Shown: one piece after another, positions 50,641-61,296 of the stretch
Layout of the letters: the number at the start of each line of letters is the position of its first letter
Numbering within the stretch: the stretch's first letter is position 1
Assembly: GCA_965218775.1 (NCBI GenBank)
Contig: CBDCLS010000005.1
Coordinates: forward strand, 702,498-766,497
Reading direction: 5' to 3'
Source: Acidobacteriota bacterium
GTDB lineage: Bacteria > Acidobacteriota > UBA6911 > RPQK01 > JAJDTT01
Length of the DNA: 64,000 nucleotides
Made by a program: the position numbers and the translations under genes
Notes under the pieces: model-generated
Database searches by the model: none
Seen by the model: only the letters and a program-made list of their open reading frames with translations
Told to the model about the DNA's origin: nothing

Positions 50641-51483
50641 TTGAGGTTGGCTAACCGCTCCGCATATGGCTGCCGGAAAGTTTTCTTCCCGACACTCTAT
50701 GGAACCGTTCTACTCACGGCATCTTTGTGGGCACAGCAGCCTGCGGAGCATCCGAACGTCAAAGCGCTATCCAAAGGAGAAATTGGGACCAGGCTGTTCC
50801 TGGAACAGATCCAGCCCCTGTTTGAGAAGAATTGTCTCGCCTGCCACTCGAACACAACCAAACAGGCAGGACTCGATCTTTCCAGCCGGCAGGGTCTATT
50901 AGAAGGTGGCGACCACGGTCCCGCCGTGGTGCCCGGTAGCAGCAAAGATAGCCTTCTCTACGGGGTAATCACTCACTCCCAGCAGCCTGCGATGCCGCCT
51001 CAAGAAGAAAAGCTGCCTACACAGGCCGCGGCCCTCATCGGCCTCTGGATCGATCTGGGCGTTCCCTACGGCCACCGCGACTCCGACGACGATGTCACGC
51101 TTACGGATGAATCCAGCAGCAGGAATGCGGCCGGCCCAGATGACCTCTTCGACCAGGTCAGATCGACCTTGGAGACCCAGTGCCTTCACTGTCACGGAGG
51201 CAAGTTTCGCCAAGCCGGCCTCGATCTTTCCGAGCGTGAAGGACTCCTGAAGGGAAGCGATGAACACACTGACGTGGTCGTTCCCGGGAAGCCTGAAGCT
51301 AGTCTGCTGGTCAAGAAGGTCAGACACCAGCATGAGCCGGGCATGCCCTACCAGGGCCAGCGACTCTCTTTTCCTCCTTCTGGGGATGGGGCAAGCCCTC
51401 TTTTTTGGTCAGAGCCGAGGCAGGTCCCCGGGAAGAAAATTCTCCGGGTCCGGGTGTTGGGTGCACGTGGGAAAAATTCATAA
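50641..51483 (+). pseudogene. Planctomycete cytochrome c (PSCyt1-type) double-domain protein, probably 3'-truncated
   Basis: NCLACH...GLDLSSR...MPP and QCLHCHG...GLDLSER...MPY; homology appears to end abruptly at ~51366. Confidence 0.7.
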
Positions 51484-51904
51484 TTGGACTCCTGATTGAG
51501 GCCTACTGTATATGATCGGCTTCCGCTCGGTTGACCTTTAGCATCTCACGCTGGGCCTTTGCGGCAGATCAACGTGTGCACGTCAGCTGCGGTGACGGCG
51601 GACGACTGAGCGGCGGCTGAAATGGAGGAGATACGCTCCATCGGTCTCAGGGGTAAGAATCGCGTCATCACAGAGTCGGGCCGGGGCCTGCCTCCGTGGG
51701 GCAGTAGTTGCACCCCAATTACGTGTGCGAATCGAAACCCGCAAACCTATTTGCAATCCTCTGATTCTCGGGAATACGATAAGGGAGAGTACTGCTTGGA
51801 TTGATAAGCCAGAGGAATCTCGATCGGTATGTTCTCGGATACGGTTTTCGAGAACAGAACCTCCTTCTGGCGCGATCCCCTTCCCGACAGGAGGCAAACG
51901 GACG

Positions 51905-52255
51905 ATGGCAAACAGCAATCTCGAGAGGCTGAGGAAAGCCTTGGAAAATCTCGCAACCCTGGATATTGTGACGGTCGTTGGGCCGGTGAGTGTCTCCAAA
52001 AAGGATGGCAAGCTCACTGCCGAAGTTCGAGATCCCAGCCAGGCAAGCGCAATGCAGACGAGCATCGATCTCATTGGGGGTGATATCTGCAACCAGATCG
52101 ATAGTGCCTACACCACTGGTGATCTGACCAGTCTGCGTGATTTTCATCTTCAACAGGTGAAAGCGGGCCACGATATCATCGTCAACAACTTCAAGGCCAT
52201 GATCGATCTGTTCAAGGTCCTGGGCGATGCGGTCAGCGGTTCGCAGGAAGAGTGA
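51905..52255 (+). CDS. Hypothetical protein A (116 aa) of a three-paralog cluster
   Basis: SD AGGAGG; shares the MQTxIxL-GD...LxDFHLQ motif with B. Confidence 0.8.
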   Translation: MANSNLERLRKALENLATLDIVTVVGPVSVSKKDGKLTAEVRDPSQASAMQTSIDLIGGDICNQIDSAYTTGDLTSLRDFHLQQVKAGHDIIVNNFKAMIDLFKVLGDAVSGSQEE

Positions 52256-52496
52256 TACACCAGGCAAATCTCCGGCTCTGAGCCCATGGGGCGAAGTATC
52301 CTTGCCGCCAACCTACCTTCATGGCAAGGACCGATAGCATTCCTCTTCTACCTGGACGGAGTTCGACCTCCACCCCCACAGGAGGGCGGACTGCTCTCAC
52401 CCCACAACCGACACCCACCCGGTCGGCCCCAATCGCGGGCAAGCATGTTAGCTGCTCATCGCCGGGGATCGATTGAGGTTACGGAAGGAGAGTTCT

Positions 52497-53255
52497 ATGA
52501 ATGAGTTCAAGGAAAGCTTGCGACAAATCGGACGGGATTTGCTCAATCTGGAGATCAACACCATAGTCAAGAGCAATGTGACCGCCCGAAAGATGCCGGT
52601 TGTACCCCACGCCGTCCTCGACATTGCCCAAACTTACGCTGACAAGCTGAATACTCTGCAGGTCAATCTCAATCTCTTCTTTGACGGCGAGAAAGAAGAG
52701 AAGGAGATCAGCGATTCAAAGTATTGGGGGGAAACCAGAAAACCGACAAACGACAGATTCAACAACGAGTGCCTGAGAAACGGGTTCGACACCTTCATGC
52801 GACTGCGATGGGCAGCGCGGGCCGCCGTGGAAGAAAAAGGGGCCGACCCCGCAATCGATTCCTCCGACGTAGTGATCTTGCAGCGGATCCGTCGCAACAG
52901 CGATCAGCTGAGAGCCGTTTTGCAAACCCTCGAGCGCAAGCATTCAGATCTGTTTGGCAAAAAGAGAGCCGAGTTGGGCTACGAGAAACAGAGGCAGACT
53001 CCGTTCAACGCTGACGATCTGGCGCTGATCCGAAAGATATGGGAGATCGGTATTGAGAAGGTCGTGATGCAGACAGTCATACAACTGGACGGGGACTTGA
53101 TTACTCGAATCCAGCAAGACTACGCCAAACCTCAGTTCAAGTATCTGCACGATTTCCACCTGCAGGGGATCGTCATGGCCATGAGATCCTGGGAGATGAT
53201 AGCCAAGGCAGTGGCCACGTTCTTCAGCGGGCTAGCTGGAGCGATTGGCCGTTAG
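52497..53255 (+). CDS. Hypothetical protein B (252 aa) of a three-paralog cluster
   Basis: SD AAGGAG; N-terminal LEINTIV and C-terminal MQTVIQLDGDLITRI...LHDFHLQ. Confidence 0.8.
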   Translation: MNEFKESLRQIGRDLLNLEINTIVKSNVTARKMPVVPHAVLDIAQTYADKLNTLQVNLNLFFDGEKEEKEISDSKYWGETRKPTNDRFNNECLRNGFDTFMRLRWAARAAVEEKGADPAIDSSDVVILQRIRRNSDQLRAVLQTLERKHSDLFGKKRAELGYEKQRQTPFNADDLALIRKIWEIGIEKVVMQTVIQLDGDLITRIQQDYAKPQFKYLHDFHLQGIVMAMRSWEMIAKAVATFFSGLAGAIGR

Positions 53256-53258
53256 GGT

Positions 53259-53747
53259 ATGCACCGCGGCAAGATTTTCCTGAAGCCAAAGATTGCCTAC
53301 GATCACTTTGCCGACCTGAAGGAGCTCGTCACCAGCGGAGGCATCAGTATCGAATCGAAAGATACTGAAGGAGAGATCTACGCCCTAACGCTGGTCCAGC
53401 CCGATGGAGACATCGTCTCGCGAGTCCGCAGGGGAAGCAATCCCAGTCTCTATGAGCAGCATTATCTTGAGGTCGGTGACCATTTGACCGCGGTTGGTAA
53501 ACTCCTGGGTAATATTCAGCTGATCCTCACGTTTCTTGGCGCCTTTCTGGCCCTTCTTTGCCAAATCAGCCTAGTTTTCGGCAAACTGTATCAGCGGGCC
53601 GGTACGGATCTCGCTTTGGTGCTCTGGCAGAGCTGCCGGAGCTTGCTGATCCAGCTGGCCTTGATCTCTATTTCAGCCTACCTTTTGCGGGTTTTTGTTC
53701 TACCCTGGTTAATCCGACGGTTCACACGGAATCTGGCCTCCGATTGA
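53259..53747 (+). CDS. Hypothetical membrane protein C (162 aa) of a three-paralog cluster
   Basis: Starts 3 nt after the B stop; LTLVQPDGDIVSRV...LYEQH motif, then two hydrophobic helices. Confidence 0.75.
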   Translation: MHRGKIFLKPKIAYDHFADLKELVTSGGISIESKDTEGEIYALTLVQPDGDIVSRVRRGSNPSLYEQHYLEVGDHLTAVGKLLGNIQLILTFLGAFLALLCQISLVFGKLYQRAGTDLALVLWQSCRSLLIQLALISISAYLLRVFVLPWLIRRFTRNLASD

Positions 53748-59295: not shown

Positions 59296-59324
59296 TTGAC
59301 TTTAAGGATTATATAGGGTATAGT
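59296..59324 (+). promoter_or_regulatory. sigma70-type promoter of the IS1634 transposase
   Basis: TTGACT-N17-TATAGT, with the ATG 7 nt downstream. Confidence 0.65.
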
Positions 59325-59331
59325 GGTAATC

Positions 59332-61296
59332 ATGTACATCACCTCCGTCCCCAACCGCGGCTCTCCCCCCGCCATCCTGCTGCGCGAGAGCTACCGCCAA
59401 GGCGGTCAGGTTAAGACCCGCACCCTTGCCAATCTCTCCAAGTTGCCCGCCGAAGCGATCGCCCTGCTGCGCCGCAGCCTTAAGGGGGAAACCCTGCTGG
59501 CCCCGGAGGACGCCTTCGAGGCCATCGCCTCCTTCCAGCAGGGACACGTCCAAGCCGTGCTCACGGCCATGCGCCGACTCGGCCTCCCCCAACTGCTGGC
59601 CTCGCGGCCCTCGCGTCAACGCCAGTTGGTCTTGGCCCTGGTGGCGGCGCGCATCCTGGAACCAGCCAGTAAGCTGGCGACCACGCGCTGGTGGCAGGTC
59701 ACCACCCTGCCCTCGGAGCTGGGAGTGGAGGAGGCCGACCAGGAGGACCTGTATGCGGCGCTGGACTGGTTAGGGCAACGCCAGGCGCCGATCGAGAAAA
59801 AGCTGGCCGCTCGACACCTCCGTGAGGACGGCCTGGCGCCGTACGATCTGACCTCCACCTACTTCGAGGGCACCACCTGTTCGCTGGCCAGCCTCGGGTA
59901 CAATCGGGACGGAAAGCGCGGCAAGCTCCAGATCAACTACGGGTTGCTGACCAACCGCCGCGGGATTCCCGTCTCGGTCTCGGTCTTCGAGGGCAAGACC
60001 GGGGACCCGAAAACCCTGCTGCCGGAGGTGGACAAGCTCCGACAGCAGTTCGGGATCGAGCGGCTGGCCCTGGTGGGGGACCGGGGGATGATCACCCACA
60101 AACAGATCGATGCCCTGCGCCCGATCGACGGCATCGACTGGATCAGCGCGCTCCGCTCGGAGACCATCCGCAAGCTAGTGGAGGGCGGGGCGATCCAAAG
60201 GGGACTCTTCGATGAGCGCAACCTGTTCGAGCTCTCCCATCCGGACCTCCCCGGCGAACGACTCGTCGCCTGTCGGAATCCGGAGCTCGCCCAAAGACGG
60301 GCGCGCCACCGCAGCAGCCTGCTGGAGGCCACCACCCGGGAGCTGGAGAAGGTGCGCCGGATGGTCACCGCAGGGCGTCTGCAGGGGCAGGAGCAGATCG
60401 GCAAGCGCGTGCGCCAGGTGCTCGGTCAGTACCGGCTGGGCCAACACTATCGGCTGCAGATACGGGAGGACGGTTTCGAGTCTCGAGCCGATGAAGAGGC
60501 GATCGCCGCCGAGCTGGCCCAAGCGGCGAGCAAGAGCCCAGAGTTGGCGCAAAGACGACAGCAGCACTACGCCCGTCATCGCCAGGCGATCGACCAACAG
60601 CTAGAGCACCTCCGCCAGCGGATCCAGCGGGGGCGTCTGTACGGCAAGGAGCACATCGGGGTTCGGGTGGGAAAGGTGCTCAACAAGTACAAAGTCGGCA
60701 AGCACTTCCAACTGCACATCGAGGAGGATCGATTCGACTTCGAGATCGACCCGGAGAAGGTCCAAGCCGAAGCGGCCCTCGACGGTCTCTACGTGGTGCG
60801 CACGAGCCTGCCCCAAGAGACGCTCGACGCCGCCCAGACGGTCCTCAGCTACAAACTCCTGGGCAGCGTGGAGCGGGCCTTTCGCTCCTTCAAGACGATG
60901 GACCTCAACGTCCGACCCATCCACCACCGCCTGGCCCGCCGGGTCCGGGCCCACATCTTTTTGTGTCTGCTCGCCTACTACGTCCTCTGGCACATGCTCG
61001 AGGCATGGCGTCCGCTGCTCTTCGCCGACGAGGATCTGGAAGCGAAGAGGACGCGCGACCCGGTGGCGCCGGCCCGCCGTTCCCAGCAAGCGCTCCGTAA
61101 GGTGCACTCCAGAACCCTTGAGGATGGCACCGAGGTGCACAGCTTTCAGACGCTTCTGAAGTTCTTGAGCAGCATCACCCGCAACCTGTGCCGGGTCCGC
61201 AGCGCAGCCCCTGAGGCCACCACCTTCGAGATCCTCACCACACCCAGCGCCAAGCAGCAACGCGCCTTTGATCTTCTGGAGACCATTCGAGTGTAG
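59332..61296 (+). CDS. IS1634-family transposase (654 aa)
   Basis: MYITSVPNRGSPPAILLRESYR, YDLTSTYFEG, VGDRGM, EAALDGLYVVRT, VERAFRSFK, RVRAHIFLC. Confidence 0.93.
   Translation: MYITSVPNRGSPPAILLRESYRQGGQVKTRTLANLSKLPAEAIALLRRSLKGETLLAPEDAFEAIASFQQGHVQAVLTAMRRLGLPQLLASRPSRQRQLVLALVAARILEPASKLATTRWWQVTTLPSELGVEEADQEDLYAALDWLGQRQAPIEKKLAARHLREDGLAPYDLTSTYFEGTTCSLASLGYNRDGKRGKLQINYGLLTNRRGIPVSVSVFEGKTGDPKTLLPEVDKLRQQFGIERLALVGDRGMITHKQIDALRPIDGIDWISALRSETIRKLVEGGAIQRGLFDERNLFELSHPDLPGERLVACRNPELAQRRARHRSSLLEATTRELEKVRRMVTAGRLQGQEQIGKRVRQVLGQYRLGQHYRLQIREDGFESRADEEAIAAELAQAASKSPELAQRRQQHYARHRQAIDQQLEHLRQRIQRGRLYGKEHIGVRVGKVLNKYKVGKHFQLHIEEDRFDFEIDPEKVQAEAALDGLYVVRTSLPQETLDAAQTVLSYKLLGSVERAFRSFKTMDLNVRPIHHRLARRVRAHIFLCLLAYYVLWHMLEAWRPLLFADEDLEAKRTRDPVAPARRSQQALRKVHSRTLEDGTEVHSFQTLLKFLSSITRNLCRVRSAAPEATTFEILTTPSAKQQRAFDLLETIRV

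Follow-up and report, generated by a model that had tools for sequence, protein, structure and literature searches.

A widespread cassette of three paralogous proteins, one of them membrane-anchored, with a possible role in lysis and release

The subject of this analysis is a cassette of three genes, here called A, B and C, in a 64,000-nucleotide stretch of DNA from an Acidobacteriota bacterium (contig CBDCLS010000005.1; the whole stretch is referred to below as the window). The genes follow one another on the + strand (A, 51905..52255; B, 52497..53255; C, 53259..53747), and their products are related to each other and to no described family. An earlier reading made from the sequence alone had singled out this cluster as a candidate new system. 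The same co-directional open reading frames (ORFs) were called by the gene caller of the source contig, which is a 2.9-Mb metagenome contig, with identical limits for all three. Our follow-up confirmed that the finding is larger than that reading had thought: the trio is a widespread and unannotated three-paralog cassette, for which the neighbours of its relatives provide a specific and testable functional lead.

The lead concerns the way in which large cytoplasmic products leave the cell. The exit of very large toxins without signal peptides, and of phage-tail-like particles, is only now being worked out, and the known exit route is provided by phage-derived holin/endolysin/spanin cassettes (PMC10847048). 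The trio is a candidate for an alternative route that is not derived from phages, and the proposal is directly testable; Azospirillum brasilense Sp7, a model organism available in culture, carries the trio. We call the trio new because no relative was detectable. Should the lysis idea be wrong, a confidently modelled fold without a match, together with three paralogs and one membrane tether, would still amount to a new and widespread protein complex, and annotation pipelines gain three families that are now labelled 'hypothetical protein'.

A module common to the three proteins

Judged by family-level sequence comparison, A, B and C are paralogs, in agreement with the sequence-only reading. 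Common to all three is a β-hairpin/helix module of ~55 residues with a conserved Thr, Gly-Asp and His. The core begins with a helix-strand carrying the Thr, which is followed further on by a hairpin with a Gly-Asp turn (DGD in B and C) and then by a helix carrying the His. Gene A encodes a soluble, acidic protein of 116 residues (isoelectric point (pI) 4.9; E 1.7e-34 with the A-family hidden Markov model (HMM)) and represents the minimal form of the common fold: an N-terminal helix, a β-meander and a long C-terminal helix. Its module (52046..52159, + strand; residues ~48-85) comprises the hairpin MQTSIDLIGGDICNQID and the start of the helix with the invariant H81. Gene B encodes a soluble paralog of 252 residues, in which the A fold is enlarged by a helical insert of ~145 residues with the conserved motifs KMP..HALLDIA, LRWAA, RI..N.DQ and IRKIWE; here the module (53058..53171, + strand; residues ~188-225) consists of the hairpin MQTVIQLDGDLITRIQ and the start of the helix with H221. 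The 162-residue product of gene C is the membrane-anchored paralog. Its N-terminal copy of the module, predicted to be cytoplasmic, is followed by two hydrophobic helices, and the protein ends in the basic tail RRFTRN. The C module (53379..53474, + strand; residues ~41-72) contains the hairpin LTLVQPDGDIVSRV and a helix with His68, which is 100% conserved across the C family.

Pairwise comparison by BLASTP detected A and B as related (15/34 identities, E 8e-6, at MQTxI..DFHLQ) and gave no significant match for A-C or B-C. When family profiles were aligned with hhalign, the relationship extended to all three: B-C reached a probability of 96.6% (E 6.9e-10), A-B 84.9% (E 6.4e-6) and A-C 24.5% (E 8e-4). 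Each family HMM also matched members of both other families. In MAFFT alignments the N-terminal helix-strand and the C-terminal hairpin-helix of A mapped onto the two ends of B, with L16, T23, Q51, G59 and D60 invariant, leaving B residues ~25-170 as an insert. The description of B as A with an insert, previously put at ~130 residues, was thus borne out with a somewhat larger insert of ~145. The invariant or near-invariant residues are T23, G59, D60 and H81 in the A family and T22, G199, D200 and H221 in the B family; the C family conserves T33 (87%), D49, G50, D51 and H68 (100%). The AlphaFold secondary structures of A and B are likewise similar, opening with a helix at 2-15 and a strand from 17/18 to 24 and closing with a hairpin and a long helix. 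Both soluble families are acidic, with median pI values of 5.1 for A and 5.6 for B.

The membrane anchoring of C, also proposed from the sequence alone, was supported by two hydrophobic stretches in the window protein (53493..53699, + strand; residues ~79-107 and ~118-147) and by the family as a whole. At least one hydrophobic segment was found in 50 of 55 C proteins, as compared with 3 of 85 A and 3 of 68 B proteins. These sequence features support C as the predicted membrane tether of the trio. The number of hydrophobic helices varies from one to three, and their sequence is poorly conserved throughout the family, whereas a basic RW..RR motif following the last helix is conserved. This combination suits an anchor or holin-type segment better than a specific channel. 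C also has the general traits of a holin, namely a small size, one or more transmembrane helices and a C-terminal tail that is charged and hydrophilic. It had no match to described holin families in Pfam or PHROGs, and 0 of 26 C-family members matched a holin model at E <= 1.

No family could be assigned to any of the three proteins, as the sequence-only reading had also found: A, B and C were without a match in Pfam, NCBIfam, PADLOC and PHROGs. Scanning the relatives singly at E <= 1 (28 A, 57 B and 26 C) revealed no recurring family, and profile searches against all PDB sequences returned nothing below E 0.1. The best PDB sequence match of the A profile was the N-terminal domain of anthrax lethal factor (E 0.15), with an IVDGDIT-like strand in common; this likeness was judged to be due to chance because none of the 28 A members has an ATLF Pfam match.

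The B protein was modelled by AlphaFold with high confidence (predicted local distance difference test (pLDDT) 90.7, predicted template modelling score 0.85). Its elements are a helix (2-15), a strand (17-24), the helical bundle, a second helix (172-184), a hairpin (188-196 and 201-205) and a long terminal helix (212-251). Foldseek searches of PDB and BFVD with this model found no neighbour, the best hit having an E value of 0.2 and a template modelling (TM) score below 0.25. A was modelled with AlphaFold2 from an alignment of A with B homologs, so that the model leans on B covariation; it shows a meander of five strands preceded by one helix and followed by another, of 40 residues (pLDDT 85). 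With the A model, Foldseek ranked only YbaB/EbfC proteins at the top (1j8b, E 0.07, probability 0.72; 1pug; 3f42; 1ybx), at weak scores (E 0.07-2, TM 0.29-0.45). Kinship with YbaB found no support at the sequence level, since hhalign gave the A profile a probability of only 1.8% against Escherichia coli YbaB. Pfam YbaB (PF02575) likewise had no match in the window proteins, nor any at E <= 1 among the relatives scanned (28 of A, 57 of B, 26 of C). We therefore treat YbaB as a weak, topological lead drawn from the predicted model. The trio belongs to an uncharacterised, widespread family, and its modelled fold matches nothing solved.

Distribution, gene order and variants

Relatives were collected through B. 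A word-indexed search with B returned 57 relatives, all annotated as 'hypothetical' and none with a Pfam domain; equivalent single-sequence searches with A and C returned the window's own proteins alone, owing to the limit of the word index, and the A and C relatives were taken from the loci found through B. An exhaustive search with B recovered at least 906 clusters (50% identity) at E <= 1e-3 among 1.84 billion representatives, 745 of them at E <= 1e-10. Scanning one genome per species with sequence patterns located 63 loci among 185,579 species representatives, and a scan of metagenomes added 61 further loci.

The first seven contexts read already showed a common arrangement, in which B lies between two small genes on the same strand within unrelated flanks. 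In total the A-B-C order was found in about 130 loci, again with unrelated flanks, which makes the trio a conserved unit. Where the contig left room for the gene, A lay upstream of B in 56/62 and 31/34 loci in two sets of counts, and C lay downstream of B in 55/61 and 32/33. Several A or C genes that appeared to be missing do exist and scored below the threshold. The carriers belong to the Alpha- and Gammaproteobacteria, Desulfobacterota, anammox Planctomycetota, Gemmatimonadota, Actinomycetota, Myxococcota, Chloroflexota, Bacteroidota and Acidobacteriota, and include many filamentous cyanobacteria and two archaea (Methanophagales and Methanocellales). Cultivable carriers include A. brasilense Sp7, Azospirillum halopraeferens DSM 3675, Plasticicumulans lactativorans DSM 25287 and Paractinoplanes globisporus DSM 43857. 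So patchy a spread over phyla and into archaea is consistent with horizontal transfer in which the trio moves as one. Some copies adjoin an integrase or an insertion sequence (IS) element (L006, L001).

In the first loci read the genes were separated by 0-70 nt or had overlapping stop and start codons. Two loci of actinobacterial type carry in-frame fusions of B and C, namely Paractinoplanes globisporus (L027:1006-2337, 443 residues) and a metagenome contig (L096:3809-5038, 409 residues), and each of them also encodes a separate A and B. Such fusions, together with gene junctions that are tight or overlap, are the best evidence at hand for physical cooperation of the products, and from them we infer that A, B and C probably work together as a hetero-oligomer. 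The sequence-only reading had offered a ring, filament or pore as its form, and the present data do not single out any one of these. Variation among loci takes the form of additional paralogs, with no swapped-in genes: two copies of A occur in cyanobacteria, Bacteroidota and L022, and two copies of B in L094.

Some lineages carry more elaborate arrangements. In filamentous cyanobacteria (L037-L073; Coleofasciculus, Symploca, Caldora, Spirulina and others; for example L060:1011-5490) the gene order is psbP-maf-A1-A2-B-C, and the A2 protein has a tail of 200-700 residues composed of 22-31% Asp and Glu with almost no Lys or Arg. Moorena (L055, L058, L061, L066) has kept A and B with no C-like gene following B; in L055 this position is occupied only by a hydrophobic ORF of 90 residues. 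An extended variant (L034:980-5100, L053:310-4234 and L023:3625-7885) contains an extra divergent A-like gene (122-162 residues) and a protein of 525-556 residues without a Pfam domain, whose C-terminal helix appears by eye to be strongly cationic and amphipathic. In A. brasilense Sp7 the trio (AMK58_RS24010-24020) is located on plasmid p2, an 819-kb replicon (L075:4433-8483), on the same strand as and straight after genes for a parA-like ATPase and parB, and 3 kb downstream there is a gene of the FemA/FemB family. These three genes are annotated as encoding hypothetical proteins. No paper on the A. brasilense trio was found in the literature, and a search with a family motif gave nothing relevant.

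Neighbouring genes and the possible role of the trio

Across unrelated lineages the trio is adjoined by endolysin-type peptidoglycan (PG) hydrolases, in which no signal peptide was seen by inspection. In L080, whose B protein is 41% identical to the window B and among its closest relatives, a T7-lysozyme-like amidase (PDB 1lba, E 3e-15) starts 65 nt past C. In L022 a T7-lysozyme-like amidase with a PG-binding domain (E 2e-17) has a start codon that overlaps the C stop. In Polaribacter, L010 and a Cytophagales genome, the gene immediately upstream of the trio encodes a protein that combines CHAP and PG_binding_1 domains. L111-114 have, 0.7 kb downstream, a gene for a protein with two PG-binding repeats (508 residues in L111), and the upstream flank of L106 contains a PG-binding fragment. 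Taken by locus, an endolysin-type protein with no signal peptide seen adjoins the trio in L010, L022, L034, L053 and L080 and lies nearby in L111-114. The recurrence of Amidase_2 and CHAP enzymes, and hence of at least two catalytic classes, beside the same trio resembles the endolysin modules of lysis cassettes. C is the sole transmembrane protein seen in the mini-operons of L022, L034 and L080, and in L010 it is the sole one among the listed ORFs of at least 90 residues. Beyond the amidase, the L080 locus (L080:2913-6741) encodes a 641-residue protein with an N-terminal hydrophobic segment and then a 275-residue protein; by eye, LLLTSC in the latter forms a lipoprotein-type signal, and the ORF that follows (327 residues) looks like a patatin-like phospholipase.

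A second group of neighbours encodes large toxin machines. TcA toxin subunits adjoin the trio in L017 (YenA2, E 3e-53) and L111 (YenA2, E 2e-21), and contractile injection system genes do so in L010 (Pvc16_N and sheath) and L105 (a Baseplate_J array). When neighbours were counted per lineage cluster (70% identity, readable flanks, n=50), 6/50 clusters had a hydrolase, 4/50 a toxin machine and 8/50 either. The binomial tail for the hydrolase count is between 3e-5 and 4e-3 if a background of 1.2-3% is assumed, a figure that is a rough guess and not a measurement. The sequence-only reading had mentioned secretion as a speculative role, and this suggestion receives indirect support from the endolysin, Tc-toxin and contractile-injection neighbours of the relatives; the window copy itself has no such partner.

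On these grounds we tentatively favour the reading that the trio is a holin-like membrane module, not of phage type, which is regulated by its soluble paralogs and acts in the manner of the lysis cassettes of type 10 secretion. In the scheme that we infer, which comprises complex formation, membrane breaching and regulation by A and B, the three proteins would be subunits of one membrane-tethered hetero-oligomer at the cytoplasmic face, built on the common α/β module. C would be anchored in the membrane by its poorly conserved C-terminal helices, with the basic tail at the end; A would contribute the bare module, and B the module together with its conserved helical bundle. This insert probably binds a partner or signal and would be the likely input site. 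C may oligomerise through its module and breach the cytoplasmic membrane, which would let the signal-peptide-less endolysin-type hydrolases reach the cell wall. Large cytoplasmic cargo such as Tc toxins and contractile injection particles could thereby be released. The soluble A and B proteins would pair with the C module and so hold or time the breaching.

A number of observations weigh against a lysis and release function. About 84% of the lineage clusters, including those of the window, the cyanobacteria and the Rhodospirillales, have no hydrolase or toxin-machine neighbour in the flanks read, and no hydrolase, spanin, cargo or toxin partner was found near the window trio. No spanin-like gene was identified. 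Type 10 secretion is recognised by all three component types together with a signal-peptide-less cargo; the relatives have hydrolases and/or cargo, with no spanin identified and no canonical holin. Searches of 50,697 phage records and 2.9 million viral contigs, in which holins are plentiful, found no copy of the trio. Unlike a typical holin, C has a cytoplasmic domain of ~90 residues and needs two paralogous partners. Finally, the fixed psbP-maf-A1-A2-B-C synteny of cyanobacteria looks like that of a vertically inherited housekeeping system and not of a suicide device.

The strongest alternative, although we consider it unlikely, is that the trio could be a housekeeping membrane-anchored scaffold for envelope growth, division or shape, with the hydrolases reflecting remodelling of the wall and not lysis. 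Maf is classically tied to septation and to mre operons. The psbP-maf-A1-A2-B-C order extends across many filamentous cyanobacterial genera (Maf in 9/150 neighbours, a 19-locus neighbour family), and a role in the envelope would also accommodate the position of the A. brasilense trio after parAB and 3 kb from a FemA/FemB-family gene, the cell-wall hydrolases adjoining the trio in several lineages, and the third-position guanine-cytosine (GC) content of the window trio, which matches that of the host genome. However, with 63 loci among 185,579 species representatives the cassette is very patchy, unlike a core morphogenetic system. The adjoining hydrolases are of phage-endolysin types with no signal peptide seen, the TcA and contractile-injection neighbours would be left unexplained, and Moorena keeps A and B having lost C.

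Defence was among the roles raised by the sequence-only reading, and in its more specific form the trio would be an anti-phage abortive-infection or toxin-antitoxin-like system, with C as a membrane-disrupting effector and A and B as sensors or neutralisers. The trio pairs a membrane protein with soluble partners, an arrangement common among effectors. It is moreover a small, self-contained cassette that has spread horizontally into variable contexts, with some copies beside an integrase or IS element (L006 and L001, as above). Nevertheless, none of A, B and C had a match in PADLOC (PADLOC-DB 2.0), and the PADLOC matches among the 150 neighbours were mostly transposon TnpB-like or kinase-like, with no defence-island pattern or enrichment. 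No copies were found in phages, and in cyanobacteria the cassette is vertically conserved. These results speak against the suggestion of defence, to which we assign a low probability.

That the trio is a YbaB-like nucleic-acid-binding complex tethering a plasmid or nucleoid to the membrane, as the YbaB/EbfC matches of the A model and the position of the A. brasilense p2 trio straight after parA-parB might suggest, is improbable, given the weak Foldseek scores (TM 0.29-0.45), the hhalign probability of 1.8%, the lack of a Pfam YbaB match among the relatives, the observation of the parAB adjacency in one genus only and, as a weak argument against DNA binding, the acidity of A and B (median pI 5.1 and 5.6).

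The window copy and comparison with known systems

Nothing is missing from the copy in the window: its reading frames are intact and it has ribosome-binding sites. Shine-Dalgarno sequences precede A (AGGAGG, 51889-51894) and B (AAGGAG, 52485-52490), an alternative TTG start at 52473 would extend B to 260 residues, and the C start codon lies 3 nt past the B stop. No second copy of the trio is present within the 64-kb window. The A-B spacer (52256..52496, 241 nt) is unusually long, the other loci read ranging from an overlap to 59 nt; it had no match in Rfam, and promoter and terminator predictions within it were at chance level. The window trio may have a partner encoded elsewhere in the genome, or may do a different job.

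The surrounding genes include members of the PSCyt1, ThuA, GFO/IDH/MocA, PhyH and DUF6807 families, whose usual distribution would point to a Planctomycetota-like genome. The trio had been described as lying between two broken genes, and this is supported on the upstream side only. Upstream and outside the cassette, a 280-residue ORF (50641..51483, + strand) with two PSCyt1 (planctomycete cytochrome c) domains (E 3e-28) and a C-terminal stretch without a domain match probably represents a gene that has been truncated. The caller used for the source contig omitted it and called an antisense ORF of 144 residues without a family (window ~50899-51333). Comparison of the PSCyt1 fragment with a 915-residue ORF of the window was uninformative, as the two are not paralogs. 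On the downstream side, the small ORFs following C had no family match and do not indicate gene remnants. The third-position GC of the trio (0.64-0.69) falls inside the range of the neighbouring genes (0.60-0.73), and a recent acquisition is therefore not visible in the window. The proposal that the trio was acquired as a unit accordingly stands insofar as the patchy spread over many phyla and two archaea fits transfer of the trio, and finds no trace of a recent event in the window composition. Elsewhere in the window, an ORF at 59323-61296 (+ strand) has a GC content of 0.655 and a third-position GC of 0.84, compared with 0.58 and 0.60-0.73 for the rest of the window, and may be foreign or otherwise compositionally atypical.

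Among proteins of solved structure, YbaB/EbfC, which has the form of an α-β3-α tweezers dimer, offers the nearest topology, at the weak scores given above. The order of elements is alike: a helix, strands with a glycine-containing hairpin turn, and a long helix. In contrast to YbaB, A has two extra strands and B a helical insert of 145 residues in the same loop, one of the trio's paralogs is membrane-anchored, and the trio proteins are acidic. YbaB is a dimer, which suggests how the paralogous modules of the trio could pair.

Published work attributes the release of Tc toxins and tailocins to cassettes of holin, endolysin and spanin genes, now called type 10 secretion systems, which can form part of Tc operons (PMC10847048; see also PMC7815802 and PMC10598620). 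The trio differs from these cassettes, exemplified by YenLC of Yersinia entomophaga, and from the lysis cassettes of tailocins in several respects. It has no sequence or fold relation to the holins of Pfam and PHROGs, and it comprises three paralogs, two of them soluble, in place of one small holin, with no spanins seen. It is absent from phages, and most copies, including that of the window, have no hydrolase nearby. It resembles them in the small size, membrane location and charged C-terminal tail of C, and in that endolysin-type hydrolases and/or TcA or contractile-injection genes adjoin the trio in 8/50 lineage clusters.

The logic proposed for the trio has a precedent in phage T4. The T4 holin T has a sizeable soluble domain, and its hole formation is restrained by separate soluble antiholins, RI and RIII, which bind the holin. 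There is no homology between the two systems, the T4 regulators are not paralogs of the holin, and the soluble domain of T is periplasmic whereas the C module is predicted to be cytoplasmic. By analogy, restraint of a holin by soluble antiholins would nonetheless provide a model for a C protein held by A and B.

In its broadest form the proposal, which we regard as rather doubtful, is that the trio represents a new class of lysis-timing, membrane-breaching machine unrelated to phage holins. Three paralogs with a YbaB-like module at the inner face of the membrane would gate signal-peptide-less endolysin-type hydrolases, and hence the release of megadalton toxin complexes of the Tc-toxin and contractile-injection kinds. 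Such a machine would have spread horizontally across bacteria and into archaea, with other uses in, for example, filamentous cyanobacteria. If a role in lysis is true, the function would be of a known kind, shared with the cassettes of type 10 secretion, and the machine performing it would be new.

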